Below are positions 5,944 to 31,128 of a stretch of 32,000 nucleotides of DNA, in pieces. The stretch's first letter is position 1. Every line of letters begins with the position of its first letter. A program made the position numbers and the translations under genes. This stretch comes from Haloferax volcanii DS2 (GTDB lineage Archaea > Halobacteriota > Halobacteria > Halobacteriales > Haloferacaceae). The notes below the pieces were generated by a model. The model did no database searches. It saw only the letters and a program-made list of their open reading frames with translations, and had not been told where the DNA came from. The DNA is taken from positions 210,001 through 242,000 of the forward strand of contig NC_013967.1 in NCBI RefSeq assembly GCF_000025685.1, written 5' to 3'.

Positions 5944-7314
5944 TTAGAACGTCTCGAGGTACCGGTCGAGCTCCCACTGGGAGACGTCGACGAGGTAGTC
6001 CTTGAACTCGGAGCGCTTGGCTTCGACGAACTTCTCGAAGACGTGGTCGCCCAGGGCCTCCTGGATGACTTCGTCCTCTTCGAGGGCGTCGACGGCGCCG
6101 CCGAGGTCCTTCGGGAGCGTCTCGATGCCGTACTCTTCGCGCTTTGCCTCGTCGAACTCGTAGATGTTCTCGCGGACCGGGTCGGGGCAGTCGAGGCCCT
6201 TCTCGACGCCGTCGAGACCGGCGTGGATGAGCGCGGCGAACGCGAGGTACGGGTTACAGGACGGGTCGGGGAAGCGGGCCTCGATGCGCGAGGCGGCCGG
6301 CGTGCGGGCGGCCGGCTTGCGGATGAGCGCCGAGCGGTTGCGGTCGGACCACGCGATGTAGACCGGCGCTTCGTAGCCGGGGACGAGGCGCTTGTAGGAG
6401 TTGACCGTCGGGTCAGCGACCGCCGTGATGGCGGGCGCGTGGTCGAGGATGCCCGCGACGAAGCTCTTGGCCGTGTCGCTCAGGTCGAACTCGTCGTCGC
6501 CGTCGTGGAACGCGTTCTCGCCGTCCTTGAACAGCGAGATGTGCGTGTGCATGCCGGAGCCGTTGATGCGCGGGATTGGCTTGGGCATGAACGTCGCGTG
6601 GAGGTCGTGTTCGGCCGCGATGGCGCGGACGACGGACCGGAACGTTGCGACGTTGTCGGCCGTCGAGAGGGCGTCGTCGTACGTGAAGTTAATCTCGTGC
6701 TGACCCTCGGCGACCTCGTGGTGCGAGGCTTCGATGTCGAAGCCCATGCTTTCGAGGCCGTAGATGATGTCGCGGCGCACGTCGGACGCGAGGTCCTTCG
6801 GGGCGAGGTCGAAGTAGCCGCCGGCGTCGTTCGTGACGGTCGTCGCGCGGCCGTCTTCGTCTTCTTCGAACAGGAAGAACTCCGGTTCGGGAGCGACGTT
6901 CACGTCATAGCCGAGTTCCTCGGCGCGCTCGATAGCGCGCTTGAGGACGCCACGCGGGTCGCCGCTGAAGGGCTCGCCGGTGGACGTGTTGAACACGTCA
7001 CAGATGAGACGGCCGGCGGCGCTGTTTTCCTTCTTCCGCCACGGGAGGACGGCGAACGTCGACGGGTCGGGTTCGAGGCGCATGTCGGACTCCTGGATGC
7101 GCACGAAGCCGTCGATGGAGGAACCGTCGAAGTAGATGCCCTCGGTGAACGCCTTCTCGGCCTGCGAAGCCGGGATGGAGACGTTCTTCACCGTTCCGAG
7201 AATGTCGGTGAACTGGAGTCGGAGGAAGTCGACGTTCTTCTCTTCGATTTCGTCGATGACTGCCTGTGCCTCGTCGCTCAGGCCGCCGTCGGTGAGTGCG
7301 TTGTCTTCCGTCAT
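5944..7314 (-). CDS. glnA: Glutamine synthetase, type I
   Basis: Hallmark GS-I sequence: [57 protein letters not shown] at 7314 is preferred over the GTG at 7326 that opens the track ORF, because the TATA-like element at 7346-7351 places the TSS between them. Confidence 0.95.
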
Positions 7315-21537: not shown

Positions 21538-22569
21538 TCATTCAATCCGGAGTTTGTCCAGGTGAGGACGGCGGCGCAGCTCCATCCGTTCGCGCTGGGA
21601 CGCTTTGTCGTAATGCTGTTCAATAACCTCTTGAGACGCATTCACGCGCTCCGCGGTCACCTCCGCAGGGAACCCGCGATCTCTGTGCCACGTAATCGAC
21701 CCCGTTCGAATGTGGTGTGGTGATCGAGAAGACGGACACTTGCTACCCTGAGTGTATGACCCCGCGAACTCGCAGGAATCTTTCTCGTACTCGTGCGGGC
21801 ACGGACCAGCAACACACGGCTGCGTCGCCTGATACATCCACCCCCGAAAGCCGTTCTTCGAGATACGAGTTCCGTGGTGCGTCACGAACAGCGGAGAGCG
21901 ACCAAAGTCGTCGTGGCCATCCGGCCGGAACTTCTCGATGTAGGTGTTCAGCGACTCGACGACCTCCGGCAAGAGCGAAACCGTACGTTCGCCATTCATC
22001 TGATTCTTCAGCGGCGTCTCGGACTCCGGCCGGTGGACGAACTCGACGTACTGCTCATCGGGGTAGTAGTCGCGCAGATCGAGCCCGCGAAGGGCACCGA
22101 GACGAGCGCCCGTGTGCCACGCGAGTTCGAGAACCGCGTGGAACCGAGTCCCGCGGACGCTACTGTGTGACCGGTAGTACCGAAGCAATCGAAGCGCGTC
22201 GTCGGGAACCAACATCGTGTCTCGCGACCGCTCCGACATCGGGACACTCGGTACGTGGACCTTCTTCGAGAGACCGTCCTCGACCGCCTCGATGCGCTCG
22301 AGGTACTCGATGAACCCGAGCAGCGTCTCCATCTCGCCGTGGAGAGTGGGTGAGGCGATACCCTGACCAGCGCGAAAGGCCTCGAACTGCTCGAACGTCC
22401 ATCCGTTCAGGTCAGAGACGCGCTCGATATTCTGGTCCTCGCACCATTCGACCCAGAGTTTCAGACGGTATCTGTAGGTCTTGATGCTCGACTCCGAGAG
22501 TTCCGTCCCTCGACGGTCAAGATAGCGGCGAACGGCCTCGCGGGGCTTGAGTTCTGAGGGTCCGTTCAT
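21538..22569 (-). CDS. Tyrosine recombinase / phage-type integrase
   Basis: 343 aa. It has an N-terminal SAM-like core-binding domain. Catalytic residues are in order: R (HTGARLGALRGL), HxxR (SPHHIRTGS) and Y (IEQHY). A Cys-rich insert (CVAGPCPHEYEKDSCEFAGSYTQGSKC) is also present. Confidence 0.9.
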   Translation of the reverse strand: MNGPSELKPREAVRRYLDRRGTELSESSIKTYRYRLKLWVEWCEDQNIERVSDLNGWTFEQFEAFRAGQGIASPTLHGEMETLLGFIEYLERIEAVEDGLSKKVHVPSVPMSERSRDTMLVPDDALRLLRYYRSHSSVRGTRFHAVLELAWHTGARLGALRGLDLRDYYPDEQYVEFVHRPESETPLKNQMNGERTVSLLPEVVESLNTYIEKFRPDGHDDFGRSPLFVTHHGTRISKNGFRGWMYQATQPCVAGPCPHEYEKDSCEFAGSYTQGSKCPSSRSPHHIRTGSITWHRDRGFPAEVTAERVNASQEVIEQHYDKASQRERMELRRRPHLDKLRIE

Positions 22570-23029: not shown

Positions 23030-23202
23030 CTGTCGACCTCCAGCGCCGCGCACTTCCGGCAGGCGCTCAGGCGAGTCTCGGCATCGACGCCGACCGCCGG
23101 GCGGAGGAGACAGACCTCACACGTGGACTCGTCGCCCTTATCAAACTGTGCTGCATCGGTCGCTATGCGGGTGGTAACACCCGTGGTTTTGGCTTCCGTC
23201 AT
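23026..23202 (-). CDS. Small zinc-ribbon protein (58 aa; CxxC...CxxC)
   Basis: MTEAKTTGVTTRIATDAAQFDKGDESTCEVCLLRPAVGVDAETRLSACRKCAALEVDR. This is the first gene of the ATGA-linked string that ends in the integrase. Confidence 0.55.
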   Translation of the reverse strand: MTEAKTTGVTTRIATDAAQFDKGDESTCEVCLLRPAVGVDAETRLSACRKCAALEVDR

Positions 23203-23314
23203 GGCTATTGACGGACCCTTCCTGAGAGCGGTGCTGGACCCACCGCGCTCAGGGCCTACAAAAATCATCTCCAGCCGACGGTGTCTCTCAGGGTTCCGTG
23301 AGTCTACCATAACA

Positions 23315-23340
23315 CTAACTGTGCATAAATGCACCGTTAG
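23315..23340. promoter_or_regulatory. 26-bp imperfect palindrome over a TATA-like core (candidate operator/promoter of the switch region)
   Basis: CTAACTGTGCAT-AA-ATGCACCGTTAG has 12-bp arms with one mismatch. The centre GCATAAATGC is TATA-like. It lies in the 212-bp divergent spacer between the integrase operon and the repressor-like genes, and the ATG at 23352 is about 27 nt downstream of its centre. Confidence 0.5.
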
Positions 23341-23414
23341 TTTGAGAACAGATGTTTGGATTGCTAAAGCACGATTCGTCGGCAATAGACCAAACCAGCG
23401 TATACGTACACGTA

Positions 23415-23702
23415 ATGAGAAAGTCTGCATCGTGGATGACGATATGGGACGACCGAATCCTCGAGTGGGCACGGGAACACGAGTCGGCGAGCGCCGCCGC
23501 GATGAAAGACACCGAATACTTCCAGGTATCTCGTTCGTCGCTCTCACGGCGGCTCTCGAAGCTCAACGAGAAAGGGCTACTCCAGCACCTCGGCAATGGT
23601 GTCTACGTCATCACGGCTACCGGCGAAAGCTATCTCGAAGGTGAACTCAGCGCTGAAGAACTGAACGGCGAGAATGGTGAAGAGGGCTCTGCGTCCGCGT
23701 GA
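23415..23702 (+). CDS. PhiH1-repressor-like winged-helix protein (paralog 1)
   Basis: MRKSASWMTIWDDRILEW...SRSSLSRRLSKLNEKGLLQHLGNGVYVITATGESYLEGEL shows the WM-x-x-WDDRILE N-terminal motif and the Y-x-IT-x-G-x-x-YLEG tail typical of haloarchaeal PhiH1-repressor-like proteins. The start could instead be the ATG at 23352, which would be leaderless from the palindromic TATA. Confidence 0.7.
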   Translation: MRKSASWMTIWDDRILEWAREHESASAAAMKDTEYFQVSRSSLSRRLSKLNEKGLLQHLGNGVYVITATGESYLEGELSAEELNGENGEEGSASA

Positions 23703-23713
23703 CTCACTCTGAG

Positions 23714-24040
23714 ATGCGGAAGTCAGGTGACTGGATGACGATCTGGGATGACCGGATTCTCGAGTATCTCCTCGAGCACGGCTGGGGGTCTCCGGAGACG
23801 ATCCATTGGGAAATCGGCCGCGAGACGACGCTTCACCAGATTCGAGAACGATGTCGCGTGCTGTGTCACGCTGGGCTGGCGTCGCCGTTCATCGACGAGC
23901 GGAGTGCAGACATGTTCGAGATCACGATCTGGGGGCAGTTGTATCTCGAGGGGAAGGTGAATGCGGGGTTGATTCGACCGCTTCCGAAGCCAAGGCCGCC
24001 AGACAAAGTACGACCCAGATATTGGTCACAGATTGCGTGA
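23714..24040 (+). CDS. PhiH1-repressor-like winged-helix protein (paralog 2)
   Basis: MRKSGDWMTIWDDRILEY...FEITIWGQLYLEGKV has the same N-terminal motif as paralog 1. The alternative GTG at 23699 overlaps the upstream stop (GTGA). Confidence 0.7.
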   Translation: MRKSGDWMTIWDDRILEYLLEHGWGSPETIHWEIGRETTLHQIRERCRVLCHAGLASPFIDERSADMFEITIWGQLYLEGKVNAGLIRPLPKPRPPDKVRPRYWSQIA

Positions 24041-24084
24041 CTGTTCATAAATTATAACATTCACCTATACCAATAGGATAGGAA

Positions 24085-24963
24085 ATGTCTGGAACAAAGT
24101 TCTACTTTGCTACCTTTGAGGTAGAGGGTAATTTCGGTTTTGATTACCCGGCGGATATGGAATACGATCGAAAGGTGCGTGAATCGTTGACTGATTTTGT
24201 TGAATTGGAGGGTGCTGTTGCCCAAGGAGACTCTGAAGAATGGTACTTTGGACGGCCTGAGTTCGATGCCAACATGATTTATGGGAAATTTGGAAAAGTG
24301 TATGCAGATGAACCATTAACCTACGATGATGAAATAGGTGACTTCGTGGAGGGTGATGAACCAAACAAAGAGGCAGACTACTCTCTATTTGCCATTGATC
24401 TAGAAAATAATCTCGTCATTTTCAGCTCAACCTATCGCGTTAGACACCGAAACTTCACCAAGTATCTCAAAAAAGGATATGACAGCTTTACAGGTGGTGA
24501 TGCCTCAATTCATTTAGAGCTTGTTAGAAATAAAGAGGGTGTTGAGACAGTAATTCAAAACTATCCTGTTCACAAAATCCATGCAGAATTAGTCCCATCT
24601 AACCCGTCTCCTGATGAAGAATGGGAAGAGTTAGACGAGAGCCTCAGAGAGATGCTAGCCGATAAACTAGGAATTACTGCTGAACAGTACAATGATGGTG
24701 GATTAGATTTCTCAGAGAGTTTTCTGTCACAAGTGGCCAGTATGTCACAGTCAAAATATGGTGAATCTTGGGAGATTACCTATAGTGACGATGACGGAGA
24801 ATTCAAGGTCATTTCATCGGATGACGATCCGGCCTCAAAGGTTATTGATGAAGAGCCGACCACTACTGGCGGTCTGAAAGCGCATATCGAAGGGATACTG
24901 AGTTACGGTCTCACGTTCTTAGACTCAGTACCTCACAAAGCATCCTCGGCTAGCTGTTTCTGA
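24085..24963 (+). CDS. Hypothetical acidic soluble protein (native length 280 aa; the present 292-aa form carries a 12-aa IS-encoded tail)
   Basis: Visibly AT-rich ORF with an ATG start and an AT-rich TATA-like stretch at 24044-24061. No TM segment or motif recognised. The last 12 codons (SVPHKASSASCF) are read from the left end of the IS. Removing the IS restores ...TTA GAC TAA. Confidence 0.65.
   Translation: MSGTKFYFATFEVEGNFGFDYPADMEYDRKVRESLTDFVELEGAVAQGDSEEWYFGRPEFDANMIYGKFGKVYADEPLTYDDEIGDFVEGDEPNKEADYSLFAIDLENNLVIFSSTYRVRHRNFTKYLKKGYDSFTGGDASIHLELVRNKEGVETVIQNYPVHKIHAELVPSNPSPDEEWEELDESLREMLADKLGITAEQYNDGGLDFSESFLSQVASMSQSKYGESWEITYSDDDGEFKVISSDDDPASKVIDEEPTTTGGLKAHIEGILSYGLTFLDSVPHKASSASCF
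24926..24941. repeat. IS left terminal inverted repeat
   Basis: CAGTACCTCACAAAGC, read directly. Confidence 0.8.
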
Positions 24964-25109
24964 AGCCTGAGTTCTGTGGCGGAGCGGTTGGACTGGCGGT
25001 TTCGACGAGAGAATTATGGACGGATCGGCGGAGAGCCGTCGCTGTCGGCGGCGGCTGCCGCCGACGCGACAGCGTCGCCACTCCCACCGTTGGCTAGCCC
25101 GGTCGGGAG

Positions 25110-26276
25110 TTACCGGTGGAACCGGTCGTCTGGTGGTCGGTTCGCGGGGACGGCCCGACGCACCGCGAGGGCCGTCCACGCTGCTCGACGGACCATATTG
25201 ATGAACTCCTTGAACGACCACTCCCAGAGGCGACGCCCCCCACGGCGGGGCGTCGCCACGTACTCCCAGTGCAAATACCGCCAGACGTTCTGTAACAGCA
25301 GGCTCACCACGACGTACAACAGCCGTACGACCGGATTTTGTGTCGAGGTCGTCGCGATACTTTGCTCGGAGAGTCGATAGCTTGCCTCGATACCGAAGCG
25401 TTTCGCGTAGTGGTATCGAGCGTCCCGTGGTGAGTCGATGAACGGCGCGTCAGCGGCGTAGCCGTGACGCGCCACGCCATGTTCGTCGTACCGTCCGTTC
25501 TGGTAGGTACAGTCGATGTAGACGGGAAACTCGACGGTCCAGCTGTGACCGTCGAGTTTCGCTGTCAGACTGTGCTGAATCACGCGACTCCACCCTTCTG
25601 AGAGTTCTCGCTTGATCGTCTGTCCCCAGCGGACGATCGGCATGACGTAGGCGTGGTTGTGCGCCTGAAGCAGCGTCAAACACTTGCTGTCGTAGAATTC
25701 GCGGTCAAGATAGACGGCCTTGACACCGAGGTCAAGGCCGTCGAGAATACCGAGGAACTCTGCGAGGACACTGCTGGCGGTGTCGCCGTCTTCGAGACGG
25801 CGCACCGCCAGCGTGTAGCGTTTGTTCTTCACGCGTGCGTACAGTGTCGCGTACGCGTGAAACGCGGTGGTTCCACGCTTCGCTTGTGAGTGATACAGGC
25901 CGTCTGTATCGTCTTCGTCGCCGTAGTAGGGCCGCAGGTGGAGGTCTGCGCAGACCTCCACCTGCTGGGGAAGGACGTTGAGAATGTCCTTCTGGAGGAG
26001 CGTGTTCCCGATTTGTTCGAGCGTCTCGAGGTCGAACTTGGTGCGGAGATGGTAGAGAACCGAGTTTTCGTGAGGTGCATCTTCGCTTCTCTTGCAGAGT
26101 GTAGAGACCGAGGTCCCGTCGGCGCAGGCGCCGACGAGGACCTCGTAGATGTCTTCAGCATCGAGTTCAGCGTTTTCAGCGAGTGAGAGAGCAACTTCCT
26201 CGTCAAGAGAGTTGACGAGGAAGTTAAGGAGCTGGTCCTCGTGGATTTCATCGTCTGTTTGCTGGTTGTTGGACAC
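25110..26276 (-). CDS. ISH3-family DDE transposase
   Basis: ...HEDQLLNFLVNSLDEEVALSLAENAELDAEDIYEVLVGACADGTSVSTLC...VYLDREFYD...YAKRFGIEASYRLSEQ contains the Y-x2-R-x3-E region. There is no ATG start. GTG at 26276 (MSNNQQ...) is preferred over TTG at 26300, which would lie only 8 nt inside the IR. Confidence 0.85.
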   Translation of the reverse strand: MSNNQQTDDEIHEDQLLNFLVNSLDEEVALSLAENAELDAEDIYEVLVGACADGTSVSTLCKRSEDAPHENSVLYHLRTKFDLETLEQIGNTLLQKDILNVLPQQVEVCADLHLRPYYGDEDDTDGLYHSQAKRGTTAFHAYATLYARVKNKRYTLAVRRLEDGDTASSVLAEFLGILDGLDLGVKAVYLDREFYDSKCLTLLQAHNHAYVMPIVRWGQTIKRELSEGWSRVIQHSLTAKLDGHSWTVEFPVYIDCTYQNGRYDEHGVARHGYAADAPFIDSPRDARYHYAKRFGIEASYRLSEQSIATTSTQNPVVRLLYVVVSLLLQNVWRYLHWEYVATPRRGGRRLWEWSFKEFINMVRRAAWTALAVRRAVPANRPPDDRFHR

Positions 26277-26307
26277 ATCTTCAGCAAGCAGACGTCTCAA
26301 CTAACCG

Positions 26308-26323
26308 GCTTTGTGATGTACTG
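26308..26323. repeat. IS right terminal inverted repeat
   Basis: GCTTTGTGATGTACTG, whose rc is CAGTACATCACAAAGC. There is one mismatch to the left IR. Confidence 0.8.
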
Positions 26324-26332
26324 AGACTAATT

Positions 26333-26932
26333 ATGGTCAACCGTGGTACCGTTCAGCGAATACGTAGTTTTGGTCCTATCCGGATTGTCACTTCATTTGA
26401 GGTTATCGGGGCAGCTCTACTTACAGCGATTGCTCGGTGTTCTTTTTCAGGTAGTTTTCAACCGGATGGGATGTCTAGTTTTGTAGCTGCAGCAACTGGT
26501 ATATCTTCATCCCTCATTGCAGTTGTCCTCACGGGAATCGCAATTCTAGTTTCCTTGTCTAGTGAACAGTTCCTATCCTTTCTACGGGAACAAGATATTT
26601 ATGATAGAATTATGTTCGTGTTTGAATATACCGTCGCACTCGCGATTATAACGTCATTATTGGGGTCAATACTGCAGACTGTAGAATATTCTGAGTACAT
26701 GTTTTGGATATTTGTATTCTTCTTCATCTATCTACTTCTAAGTACTATGCAAATCGTATCTACTATAATTGAGTATGGGGACAAGATTGGTGAGTTCAGC
26801 AAGGCTAATAATTTTGAACCAAATGAAGATCTGAAAAAAGATATGCAAGATCTGATTCAGGAGCATGGTAATTTCGACGAGGACGATAATCAGACACGGA
26901 ATCGTGGCGAGAACGAAAGTGAGAGTGAGTAA
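26333..26932 (+). CDS. Hypothetical four-TM membrane protein with an acidic C-terminal tail
   Basis: AT-rich ORF with an ATG start. Predicted helices: FEVIGAALLTAIARCSF, FVAAATGISSSLIAVVLTGIAILVSL, IMFVFEYTVALAIITSLLGSIL and YMFWIFVFFFIYLLLSTMQIVSTII. The tail, ...DEDDNQTRNRGENESESE, is charged. Confidence 0.65.
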   Translation: MVNRGTVQRIRSFGPIRIVTSFEVIGAALLTAIARCSFSGSFQPDGMSSFVAAATGISSSLIAVVLTGIAILVSLSSEQFLSFLREQDIYDRIMFVFEYTVALAIITSLLGSILQTVEYSEYMFWIFVFFFIYLLLSTMQIVSTIIEYGDKIGEFSKANNFEPNEDLKKDMQDLIQEHGNFDEDDNQTRNRGENESESE

Positions 26933-26933
26933 A

Positions 26934-27194
26934 TCACCTCCACTGACTCTCCAAACTCGTCCGATATCGCATCCCCAACACGGACGTATTGCAACAGTCC
27001 TTCACAGTCTGAGGCGGATACGCATCGCGAACTTCCTCGAGATTTTCGTAGCTCTCGATCAAGTGCGTGAGCGCCGCGTCGATCACATCACTTCGCGGCG
27101 GATCGTCCGACACATCTCGAGCCACGATCTCGCTTGCTTTGTCGAAGAGCAGCTGCCGTTCGTCGGTCAACTTCAGGCTGGTTCGTTTGGTCAT
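26934..27194 (-). CDS. Hypothetical protein, possible ribbon-helix-helix (CopG-like) N-terminus
   Basis: MTKRTSLKLTDERQLLFDKASEIV has the strand-helix pattern of RHH proteins. ATG start. The gene is convergent with the 4-TM gene, 1 nt apart. The assignment is tentative. Confidence 0.45.
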   Translation of the reverse strand: MTKRTSLKLTDERQLLFDKASEIVARDVSDDPPRSDVIDAALTHLIESYENLEEVRDAYPPQTVKDCCNTSVLGMRYRTSLESQWR

Positions 27195-27480: not shown

Positions 27481-27741
27481 ATGGCTAGTGCGACCCGTGA
27501 TGATAACGGCGAGGAGGGCGTCGAGTTCATCCACGAGGATGACGGCAGTATCACCGCCCGAGACATCGAGACGGGGATCGCATCCTTCGGCGAGACGAAG
27601 TCTGAGGCGCTTCGGATGCTCTCGGAGGCGCTTCTGCTGCACGAAGGGGGTGGCGAACCCGTCACGGACGAAGATCTCGAGGAGTTGGGACTCGATACTG
27701 ACGAGTTCGACGATCGAGAGCTTCCGGACTTCATGCAGTAA
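27481..27741 (+). CDS. hicB: HicB-family antitoxin
   Basis: IHEDDGSITARDIETGIASFGETKSEALRMLSEALLLH matches the HicB/UPF0150 N-terminal fold pattern. The tail is acidic, and the gene lies directly upstream of a HicA-like ORF. Confidence 0.75.
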   Translation: MASATRDDNGEEGVEFIHEDDGSITARDIETGIASFGETKSEALRMLSEALLLHEGGGEPVTDEDLEELGLDTDEFDDRELPDFMQ

Positions 27742-27742
27742 C

Positions 27743-27988
27743 GTGGCGCGAACGACCTTCTCCGGCCGGGAAGTCGTGAAGGCGTTAACCCGTCATGACT
27801 TCGAACCCGCTGGCCGAACCGGGAGCCACGTTCAGCTGCGGTACGAACATCCAGAGACTGACGAAGTCCGAACGGTAACCGTACCGATGAAGTCAGACAT
27901 CCCGACCGGAACGCTTCAGTCCATCGCCAAGCAGTCCGGCGCGAAGGATTTCCACTCGTGGTGCGAGTGGATCGAACAGACGCTGTAA
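27743..27988 (+). CDS. hicA: HicA-family mRNA interferase toxin
   Basis: The GTG at 27743 lies 1 nt after the hicB stop. ...GREVVKALTRHDFEPAGRTGSHVQLRY...TVPMKSDIPTGTLQSIAKQSG is the HicA/YcfA signature (GSH...VP.H/K...GTL..I.KQ.G). Confidence 0.75.
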   Translation: MARTTFSGREVVKALTRHDFEPAGRTGSHVQLRYEHPETDEVRTVTVPMKSDIPTGTLQSIAKQSGAKDFHSWCEWIEQTL

Positions 27989-29481: not shown

Positions 29482-31095
29482 ATGCTCCGACTTGCATCGA
29501 CCTACGCCGCCGTTGGTCTCTCGGTGGCCGCCGCCTACCTCGCCGGGGTCCACGGCGACCACCATGCCGCCGCCATCGTCGCCGCGGTCGCTGTCCTCTT
29601 CGTCGCGCTTCGACTCTCGTTCGGTGATGTGCTTCGGCTCGGCGCGCTCGATGCCGACCGGGTCAAGGTCAAGGCTCGACAACTCGGCACGCTCGCCGCC
29701 GTCAGCCTCGTCGTGACAACCGTGGCCACGAGTGGCGTTGTTCCTGGTGCGTCGCCGGTTGGTGACGCTTCTGCGGAGTGGGTCGACTGCTCGCTGTCCG
29801 ACCCGCTACTCGGCGCGGCGTTCAACACCTTGACCGGCACAGACACCGGCTGTCGCTGGGAGTCCGGCGAGCAAATCGACTATGAGAACGTCTCGAAGAC
29901 TGACGCGTACGCCTCCGCCCTCGGGATTGCTGACGCCTCCGAATCGTACACGACGACGACGAGTAACTTCCTCGAAGACACGCGGTCGGTCGCGTGGTCG
30001 AAGGCGAAAATCACCATCGTTAACGAGCTCAACAACGGCTCGACGGTCAGTCAGGCGAAAGTCGCGGCCAATCAGACAGTCGCGGAGTACTACACCGGCG
30101 TCCAGCGGAACGTGATTGCTGATTGGAACGCGAAGACGTACACACTCGGGTACCTCCACACGGAAAGCGGACTTGCCCTCACTCCAGACGGTTTCTCGCA
30201 CATCACAGAGTGGGACAACAAGACGTACACGCTTTCGGATGGGTCGACGCAGACCCTGCGAGCGATGGACTACTCAACGAATGGAGACTACCACGTGGCC
30301 CCTGAGACGACTATCATGCCACGCTCGACGGCCGACCCCGGTATCACGACTATGGGGTCCATCCAAGCCGAAGACCCGTCGGACGGATCTACGACTCACG
30401 TTCTTAGTGCGGTGGCCTACGCCGAGATTCTCGACAACACCTACAATCAGTCAAATCAGATTCAGGCGAACGTCGACGAGTACGCTGATGATGCGTACGC
30501 GCAGTACCAAGCGGGCGACATCAACACGAGCGACCTGCTCGACCCGACAACGATTGCCTCGCAAGCGGCGACTGATTACAACTCGACGGGGTACTACTCG
30601 TTTGCCGCTGTGCAACTCGCGTCGCTCGGTGCGTCGGGCGACCTCAACGCCTCGCACACTATCGAGACGGGCGACGGTACGACGCTCAACGGGACGCTCT
30701 ACTACACAGGCGACGACGCGCCTGCCGGTGGTTGGGTGACTAATGAGACGTACACCGTTTCGAACTTTAGCGGGACGTTCTACGTGGCCGCCCAACAGCA
30801 GGACGGAAACGGGAGTATCGTCGACCTCTCGACCTACGAGAATTTCACAATCGTCGACGCGGTCAACACCCGGACAGGTGAGTCGCTGAACGCGACGCAA
30901 CCCGAGACGTACATCTACGACTCGACGAACGCAAGCGCCCTCGCGGACGAAATTGATCGGCTTCGTGATCTTCGCGCAGAGTACGAGCAGGCCGGCGGTT
31001 CCGGTGGCGGCGGTGGAATCGGAATCGGAACTGAGGACCGCCTTATCATCGCCGGTGCGATCGTTGCGCTCATCCTCGTCGCTACCCGGAACTGA
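29482..31095 (+). CDS. Large membrane-anchored surface glycoprotein (537 aa), candidate spike/fusogen-like protein
   Basis: The ATG is preceded by the SD-like AAGGAGGA at 29464-29471. Hydrophobic N-terminal segments are followed by a ~430-aa ectodomain with about 15 N-x-S/T sequons and only two Cys (CSLSD...GCRW). It ends in GGSGGGGGIGIG plus a C-terminal TM (LIIAGAIVALILVATRN). An alternative in-frame GTG at 29629 would give a classical signal peptide. Confidence 0.7.
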   Translation: MLRLASTYAAVGLSVAAAYLAGVHGDHHAAAIVAAVAVLFVALRLSFGDVLRLGALDADRVKVKARQLGTLAAVSLVVTTVATSGVVPGASPVGDASAEWVDCSLSDPLLGAAFNTLTGTDTGCRWESGEQIDYENVSKTDAYASALGIADASESYTTTTSNFLEDTRSVAWSKAKITIVNELNNGSTVSQAKVAANQTVAEYYTGVQRNVIADWNAKTYTLGYLHTESGLALTPDGFSHITEWDNKTYTLSDGSTQTLRAMDYSTNGDYHVAPETTIMPRSTADPGITTMGSIQAEDPSDGSTTHVLSAVAYAEILDNTYNQSNQIQANVDEYADDAYAQYQAGDINTSDLLDPTTIASQAATDYNSTGYYSFAAVQLASLGASGDLNASHTIETGDGTTLNGTLYYTGDDAPAGGWVTNETYTVSNFSGTFYVAAQQQDGNGSIVDLSTYENFTIVDAVNTRTGESLNATQPETYIYDSTNASALADEIDRLRDLRAEYEQAGGSGGGGGIGIGTEDRLIIAGAIVALILVATRN

Positions 31096-31128
31096 CCGTT
31101 TCGACCACTCTACCAACCTTTCACACTC

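Follow-up and report, generated by a model that had tools for sequence, protein, structure and literature searches.

A candidate Rex-like exclusion module, split by an ISH3-family insertion sequence, in a pleolipovirus-like provirus of Haloferax volcanii

The window analyzed here is a stretch of 32,000 nucleotides (nt) of Haloferax volcanii DS2 (contig NC_013967.1, positions 210,001 to 242,000 of the forward strand; positions below are those of the window) and carries between 24085 and 26932 a cassette of two plus-strand genes, termed A and B. Gene A encodes a soluble protein that is DUF4747-like and has a predicted RexA-like fold, and gene B encodes a small protein with four transmembrane (TM) helices; in this strain, an insertion sequence (IS) lies between them. 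By analogy, the pair probably constitutes a provirus-borne, two-component exclusion module of the abortive-infection type—a system of the Rex and DUF4747-CarolAnn kind that sits in the immunity region of the provirus. The evidence obtained in this analysis is the anatomy of the cassette, its family membership, the predicted fold of A, the joint occurrence of the two genes across loci, and the genomic contexts of the pair. What is new is an archaeal, pleolipoviral representative of an already known kind of system. The wider proposal, that this is the first Rex-type exclusion system recognized in Archaea, within a distinct DUF4747-plus-B family that has members in both bacteria and archaea and may be the ancestral, widespread form with lambda and actinophage offshoots, is tentative and held with somewhat less than even confidence. 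The cassette and the two genes preceding it are composed as follows:

23352–23702, plus strand: winged helix-turn-helix (wHTH) gene 1, phiH1-repressor-like; likely start ATG at 23415, 95 amino acids (aa)
23699–24040, plus strand: wHTH gene 2, a paralogue of gene 1; likely start at 23735, 101 aa
24046–24057, plus strand: TATA-like box ATAAATTATAAC, 28–39 nt upstream of the ATG of A, a candidate promoter
24085–24924, plus strand: gene A, 280 native codons, DUF4747-like, predicted RexA/RdgC-like fold
24921–24925, strand not applicable: left copy of the 5-bp target-site duplication AGACT, from the junction comparison with the IS-free locus L001
24926–26323, minus strand: ISH3-family IS of 1398 bp with terminal repeat CAGTACCTCACAAAGC and a GC content of 0.595, the sole copy in the window
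26324–26328, strand not applicable: right copy of the AGACT target-site duplication, from the same junction comparison
26328–26330, plus strand: original stop codon TAA of A, followed by the 2-nt spacer TT
26333–26932, plus strand: gene B, 199 aa, four TM helices, a conserved TM2–TM3 loop and an acidic C-terminal tail

The native form of the cassette is read from an IS-free allele of Haloferax volcanii, CP106966.1 (locus L001), in which A has 280 aa and B 199 aa, 2 nt apart. The protein A of this allele (P0001) is 99% identical to that of the window. A base-by-base comparison gives the uninterrupted junction in CP106966.1 as TTC TTA GAC TAA TT ATG. A first, sequence-only reading of this DNA had removed the IS conceptually and arrived at an operon with a 280-aa A, a TAA stop, 2 nt and the ATG of B; the junction comparison therefore proves this reconstruction exactly right. 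The IS sits in the last sense codon of A, and all 280 residues are kept; the open reading frame (ORF) of the window continues to 24963 and encodes 292 aa, that is, 280 native and 12 IS-encoded ones. The native C-terminus, ending in FLD, is conserved across the A family. The description of A as soluble and acidic holds as well, with an isoelectric point of 4.2 and 61 Asp and Glu residues versus 23 Lys and Arg residues, as does that of B as a protein of four TM helices with a charged tail.

A composition profile places two low-GC blocks at approximately 24000–24800 and 26400–27000, with a GC content of 0.40–0.42 as against 0.58–0.70 in the flanks. They coincide with the two plus-strand ORFs at 24085–24963 and 26333–26932, so that the AT-richness first noted by eye is borne out. 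The comparison was extended from window positions 24085–26932 to loci L001–L003, L007–L009, L011, and L012: The cassette has a GC content of 0.385–0.46 in eight of eight haloarchaeal loci versus approximately 0.6 in the flanks, with proteins that are only 40 to 50% identical. Low GC shared by all eight diverged loci is therefore a lasting trait of the cassette and no proof of recent import. The proposal that the pair is separately acquired cargo hence stands in part: A and B match PHROGs only weakly, unlike their neighbors, which fits accessory cargo, but the persistent low GC does not simply record a recent acquisition. A TTATA(T/A)-like box is found approximately 25–38 nt 5′ of the ATG of A in seven of the eight distinct haloarchaeal loci and is not evident in L011. 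Because such a box recurs upstream of A, the pair may be expressed from a promoter of its own, as a leaderless transcript.

A and B occur together, as expected of a functional pair in the sequence-only reading. A gene of the B family follows directly on A in all eight distinct haloarchaeal loci with enough flanking sequence (L001, L002, L003, L007, L008, L009, L011, and L012), at a spacing of −8 to +2 nt, and three of five more distant loci, bacterial or metagenomic, carry a B-family partner at a spacing within this range. Three of the eight haloarchaeal loci are pleolipovirus-like proviruses, namely that of the window and L001, L002 (Haloarcula sp. JP-L23), and L009/L010. L009 features the same order as the window—integrase, small gene, wHTH, wHTH, A, B—with integrase, wHTH, and A proteins only 36 to 42% identical to their window counterparts; the linkage to the repressor genes is therefore ancient and has been kept. 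The cassette of L002 is located at the opposite provirus end, away from the wHTH genes. L008 has it beside an integrase in an island, L007 beside IS remnants, and L003 in the chromosome, with primase/GINS on one side and DUF2071 on the other. On a Picosynechococcus plasmid (L015), A and B are found amid Dnd-type genes, an HNH/ScoMcrA-like nuclease, and HigB—a setting that, judged from its genes, is a defence island. The scan of GTDB genomes yielded two loci. No match to A or to its bacterial relative P0131 was found by tblastn in phage and plasmid collections, and none in IMG/VR by a scan with the A alignment; the pair was thus found in no isolated halovirus and on no IMG/VR contig. Neither A nor B matches a virion structural or a housekeeping family, in line with the earlier view of the pair.

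The two wHTH genes end 44 nt 5′ of A and are on the same strand. The first matches phrog_2440, a "transcriptional regulator," with an expectation value (E) of 4e-36 and HVO_A0261_N at E 4e-6, and is 54.5% identical to the "PhiH1-like repressor" of Haloarcula hispanica pleomorphic virus 4 (HHPV4); the L001 gene call aligns with it from residue 22. The second matches phrog_2440 at E 3e-33, is 36% identical to the first, and is 100% identical to a 101-aa protein of L001. The position of A and B directly behind two same-strand repressor-like genes is hence confirmed by the phrog_2440 and HHPV4 repressor matches. A phiH1-like wHTH protein of the temperate pleolipovirus SNJ2, Orf4, was experimentally shown to be the master repressor (PMC10123103). 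HVO_0260 and HVO_0261 are described as phiH1-like repressors (PMC3495736), and A is therefore probably HVO_0262. HVO_0262 was the sole gene of the provirus Halfvol1 to be induced (2.3-fold) in HFPV-1 infection, and its neighbors were strongly repressed (PMC9436352). The stretch at 23100–23700, which comprises the intergenic region and wHTH gene 1, is only 74 to 77% identical to the IS-free Haloferax volcanii strain, and A and B are 99.4 to 100% identical between the window and L001. The diverged repressor-1 region looks, from these sequences, like a swap of immunity specificity between heteroimmune variants.

This neighborhood is also where a different role for the pair has to be weighed, in which A mainly regulates the lysogeny or replication switch of its own provirus and B modulates A, with defence not the primary function. 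Lambda RexA binds DNA and CI/Cro and stabilizes the lytic state independently of RexB, and its homologues bind DNA nonspecifically (PMC11077077). The RexA fold predicted for A, together with this documented switch function, the placement, common to two diverged proviruses, directly behind a pair of phiH1-type repressor genes, and the divergence of the repressor-1 region (74–77%) while A and B stayed at least 99.4% identical between strains, would all suit a switch regulator. However, the pair occurs with neither repressor nor virus nearby in L003, L015, and L016, the cassette of L002 is at the other provirus end and not beside the wHTH genes, and a switch regulator leaves the obligatory, translationally coupled membrane partner unexplained. 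A primary role in the switch is hence considered unlikely, and an exclusion module accounts better for the contexts.

The protein A belongs, as far as its sequence tells, to a DUF4747-like family, with a borderline Pfam score: It matches DUF4747 (PF15931) at 24.5 bits and E 2e-5, under the gathering cut-off of 27, and its relatives P0026, P0085, and P0131 reach 28.4, 27.9, and 51.9 bits, respectively. The 28 close homologues are all from haloarchaea or hypersaline metagenomes. Of those with full length, nearly all have PF15931 among their precomputed matches, and two are named "DUF4747 family protein" by NCBI. An exhaustive profile search (E up to 1e-3) gathered 416 representative clusters, which grade into lysine-rich proteins of approximately 280–295 aa from non-halophiles, some of them clear for DUF4747 (51.9 bits). 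No NCBIfam family was found for A or B in a scan. The sequence-only reading had recognized neither protein as a member of a described family; this stands for B, whose family is unnamed, but has to be revised for A.

The AlphaFold2 model of A, calculated from 25 sequences, is confident, with a predicted local distance difference test score (pLDDT) of 81 and a predicted template modeling score (pTM) of 0.77. Its best match in the PDB by Foldseek is lambda RexA (8twq_B) at E 2e-6 and a probability of 1.0, followed in this ranking by Escherichia coli RdgC (2owl at E 2e-5; 2owy). RdgC is a fold relative that was also reported for RexA in its structure paper (PMC11077077). The model thus suggests that A shares the two-domain fold of RexA, the similarity being at the fold or domain level. 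The best viral structural match is A0A8S5S8L2 at E 6e-12, an uncharacterized protein of the phage "Siphoviridae sp. ctylc9"; RdgC-like and "exonuclease"-annotated phage proteins rank lower among the viral matches. Run against PDB sequences as a hidden Markov model (HMM), the A profile gave only a match that was dismissed as chance.

The fold raises a further alternative, namely that A is an RdgC-like protein that binds DNA or modulates recombination in provirus genome replication and that B tethers to the membrane. 2owl, 2owy, and phage RdgC-like proteins are significant matches, with template modeling scores (TM-scores) slightly above that of RexA. A has no Pfam RdgC match, though, resembles RdgC at the fold level only, and has an obligatory membrane partner. 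The cassette is absent from sequenced haloviruses and IMG/VR, is accessory within pleolipoviruses, and occurs in a defence island. RdgC proteins are not known to be paired with a four-TM protein. This role is thus very improbable, and the structural match to RexA is taken as support for the exclusion module.

The protein B features four hydrophobic helices and, C-terminal to them, an acidic tail of approximately 50 aa. Lys and Arg residues are confined to the N-terminus, the TM2–TM3 loop, and the C-terminal tail—a distribution that predicts both termini and the central loop to be cytoplasmic. The most conserved stretch comprises the end of TM2 and this cytoplasmic loop (…LTGxAILVSLSxxxFLxxL…FEY), and the residues I71, F80, and F97 are invariant even if bacterial partners are added. 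Word-based homologue searches with B were shallow and returned two and five proteins; the B partners were therefore read from the loci of A homologues. Against a profile of haloarchaeal B proteins, the downstream partners at three distant non-halophile loci score 34 to 60 bits, the best of 2000 shuffled control sequences scoring 10.5 bits. On these sequences, B belongs to an unnamed family that is paired with A. The third-ranked structural match of B is A0A8S5S8H0, at a probability of 0.99, from "Siphoviridae sp. ctylc9," the phage that also holds the best viral match of A, and the ninth-ranked is a 165-aa protein of Sbash (the length given for gp31) at E 0.58 and a probability of 0.77. Weak matches to Tetraspanin, SpoIIIAC, and PycTM were dismissed as compositional, and a virion structural role was ruled out, as the pair occurs outside viruses and B, in contrast to all its neighbors, has no halovirus PHROG match. 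In L002 (Haloarcula sp. JP-L23, 6846–7423), B is called with 165 aa from a TTG at 6926, which probably truncates it; starting instead from the ATG 2 nt past the stop of A yields a full-length B of approximately 193 aa that aligns with the N-terminus of the family.

The layout resembles lambda cI-rexA-rexB, as proposed from the gene order alone, and the four-TM partner and the best PDB match (RexA, 8TWQ) are in keeping with it. Both systems comprise a soluble protein of approximately 280 aa followed by a small four-TM protein with both ends inside, are encoded on the same strand as, and directly 3′ of, the prophage repressor gene or genes, and are carried by a temperate virus. The four-TM topology of RexB is itself a prediction (PMC11077077, PMC6426596). 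RexB has 144 aa as compared with 199 aa for B with its acidic tail, and the host of lambda is bacterial, whereas A and B reside in an archaeon and are carried by a provirus resembling an enveloped, non-lytic pleolipovirus. Unlike lambda RexAB, A and B are probably expressed from a separate promoter, as a leaderless mRNA.

Actinophages offer the second comparison. By weak HHpred matches, DUF4747 was reported in RexA, Sbash gp30, CarolAnn gp44, and Butters gp30, each of which has a four-TM partner and was shown to act in defence (PMC6426606, PMC6426596, PMC7542560), and "DUF4747/CarolAnn" is counted among the immune operons under CapK/CapS control (PMC13373217). The pairs CarolAnn gp44/gp43, Sbash gp30/gp31, and Butters gp30/gp31 consist, like A and B, of a cytoplasmic DUF4747-linked protein and an adjacent four-TM protein; they are prophage-encoded and expressed in lysogeny, and the CarolAnn pair is co-transcribed with the repressor. 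gp44 and gp30 are approximately 370 aa long and have no Pfam DUF4747 match by hmmscan as compared with the borderline match of A; of these proteins, the haloarchaeal A comes nearest to DUF4747 proper. The actinophage pairs were tested experimentally; the A–B family is known here from sequences and models.

Bacterial operons share both families with the haloarchaeal pair, for example, that of the Picosynechococcus sp. PCC 8807 plasmid CP016488.1 (WP_065717474.1). Their A-like genes are recognized by the haloarchaeal A profile with E values between 1e-15 and 1e-18, and these operons have in common with haloarchaeal A–B the gene overlap and the mobile or defence-island setting. They differ in lying, as do those of other non-halophiles, outside viruses and in encoding A-like proteins only approximately 20 to 25% identical to A. 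No published characterization of such DUF4747-like plus B-family operons was found. Kiwa, as another two-gene defence system, consists of the four-TM protein KwaA and the soluble KwaB (DUF4868) of approximately 300 aa. Its membrane gene comes first, the reverse of the order in A–B, its soluble protein is of a different family, and neither A nor B matches the PADLOC Kiwa models.

Several results weigh against a Rex-like exclusion module. A and B have no detectable sequence similarity to lambda RexA and RexB: A has no match to RexA (PF15969) at E up to 1, which lambda RexA itself matches at E 1e-97, and hmmscan finds no RexB (PF15968) match for B. Profile–profile comparison by hhalign of A (25 and 72 sequences) with lambda RexA gives a probability of <1%, that of B with RexB 3%, and neither A with CarolAnn gp44, even with 72 sequences, nor B with gp43 gives a signal; the phage homologues of RexB are too few and too close for profile building. 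The B profile does not rank RexB or CarolAnn gp43 above shuffled sequences. A has no match in PADLOC-DB v2.0.0, and B solely a meaningless one to PycTM (E 0.86). The TM-scores of the A model are 0.28–0.38 with RexA and 0.46–0.49 with RdgC, so the fold alone cannot tell a Rex-like from an RdgC-like role, and B has only weak structural matches (E 0.02 at best), four-helix membrane bundles matching readily. Two A-like genes, L017 and L018, have no B-family partner nearby, no published experiment on any member of the A–B family was found, and the IS may have rendered the locus non-functional in this strain. The two partnerless genes, in Salinirubrum litoreum (L018, 5001–5894) and on a metagenome contig (L017, 4001–4867), are divergent DUF4747-like A genes and possibly stand-alone variants or ones with a different partner.

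If the pair is an exclusion module, it would work along the lines of lambda Rex and of the Sbash and CarolAnn pairs, from whose experiments the sensing, the A–B contact, the depolarization, and the antiviral phenotype are borrowed. Their own TATA box would drive a leaderless bicistronic mRNA with translational coupling of A and B, and transcription might also read through from the two phiH1-type repressor genes upstream. A, as a cytoplasmic protein of RexA fold, would sense a superinfecting virus and act on the conserved cytoplasmic TM2–TM3 loop of B, which in turn would compromise the membrane potential, arrest the cell, and stop replication of the invader. The mechanism of Rex is still unsettled decades after its discovery, and very little is known of exclusion systems that archaeal viruses encode. 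Haloferax volcanii offers genetics, a provirus-free strain, and the infecting pleolipovirus HFPV-1, which makes an archaeal Rex-like pair directly testable. It could, if the reading is true, reveal whether the logic of a sensor plus a membrane effector spans domains and works on budding, non-lysing viruses. The analysis also singles out a conserved partner family of DUF4747—the B family—and the invariant cytoplasmic loop supplies mutational targets.

The IS is bordered by imperfect terminal inverted repeats, located by a repeat search at 24919–24941 and 26308–26330. Its transposase ORF at 25110–26300 on the minus strand encodes 396 aa and matches NF033541 (ISH3 family) at E 5e-116. B is displaced from A by 1.4 kb, which would remove it from its promoter and its coupled start. 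In this strain the module has therefore probably lost its activity or its balance, and the copy in the laboratory lineage is probably a disabled one. A alone might retain a RexA-like, RexB-independent activity. If the exclusion module is real, the IS-split and the intact alleles would form a natural on/off pair that could explain differences in susceptibility, for example, to HFPV-1. The transposase is transcribed toward gene A, so read-through would yield antisense RNA over A. HVO_0263 is among the chromosomal antisense RNAs of Haloferax volcanii validated by Northern blot (PMC8303175); the transposase gene is HVO_0263 if the inferred DS2 numbering is right.

Further features of the window delimit the element and the cassette:

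21538–22569, minus strand: tyrosine integrase of the provirus at the left element end; Phage_integrase at E 6e-6, phrog_1 at E 1e-26; present in L001
26934–27194, minus strand: DUF7386 gene, convergent with B, at the right edge of the cassette; PF24111 at E 4e-48, phrog_7612 at E 4e-48
27481–27988, plus strand: genes of DUF7387 (PF24113 at E 3e-40) and a HicA toxin (HicA_toxin at E 1e-15; phrog_353, toxin)

The DUF7387 protein has 86 aa and forms with the HicA-family toxin a HicB/HicA-like, toxin–antitoxin-like pair. HicB/HicA of SNJ2 follow directly behind the repressor and are a functional toxin–antitoxin module (PMC10123103). Relative to the SNJ2 layout, A and B together with DUF7386 and a small minus-strand gene appear as an insertion behind the repressor genes.

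This vicinity bears on the third alternative, an addiction or stabilization module in which a membrane toxin (B) is countered by a cytoplasmic antidote (A), or with the roles exchanged, so that the provirus or island is retained by the host. It would suit a small, tightly coupled operon on mobile elements that adjoins a HicA module; a small membrane-active protein is plausible as a toxin, and an IS between two genes is the type of event that inactivates toxic loci. Yet a protein of 280 aa with an RdgC/RexA-like two-domain fold is an atypical antitoxin, neither A nor B matches a toxin–antitoxin family, and the A ORF persists intact in the IS-disrupted strain. Rex-type systems are themselves conditionally toxic, so this alternative overlaps with the exclusion model. 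As a separate explanation it is improbable. Switch regulator, addiction module, and RdgC-like modulator each explain less than an exclusion module does of the membrane partner, the non-viral occurrence, and the defence-island context.

The genes to the right of the cassette have matches among the halovirus PHROG families (E 1e-42 to 1e-148), and precomputed annotation assigns their L001 counterparts to the pleolipovirus families VP3, Viral_env_HRPV, DUF8063, and DUF8125/8126. By these family matches, the element is thus a beta-pleolipovirus-like provirus. Halfvol1 is a 20.6-kb provirus of Haloferax volcanii (PMC12091111), and the element is very probably this one, an identification that is inferred. 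Only the integrase-side provirus end falls inside the window. ARAGORN detects no tRNA gene in window positions 1–32000, so the tRNA-Pro att copy reported for Halfvol1 must lie past the right window end. The putative spike gene at 29555–31101 (537 aa; phrog_2231 at E 1e-148) has no nucleotide alignment to its counterpart in the IS-free strain, which suggests, at the sequence level, a variable host-recognition module at this gene.

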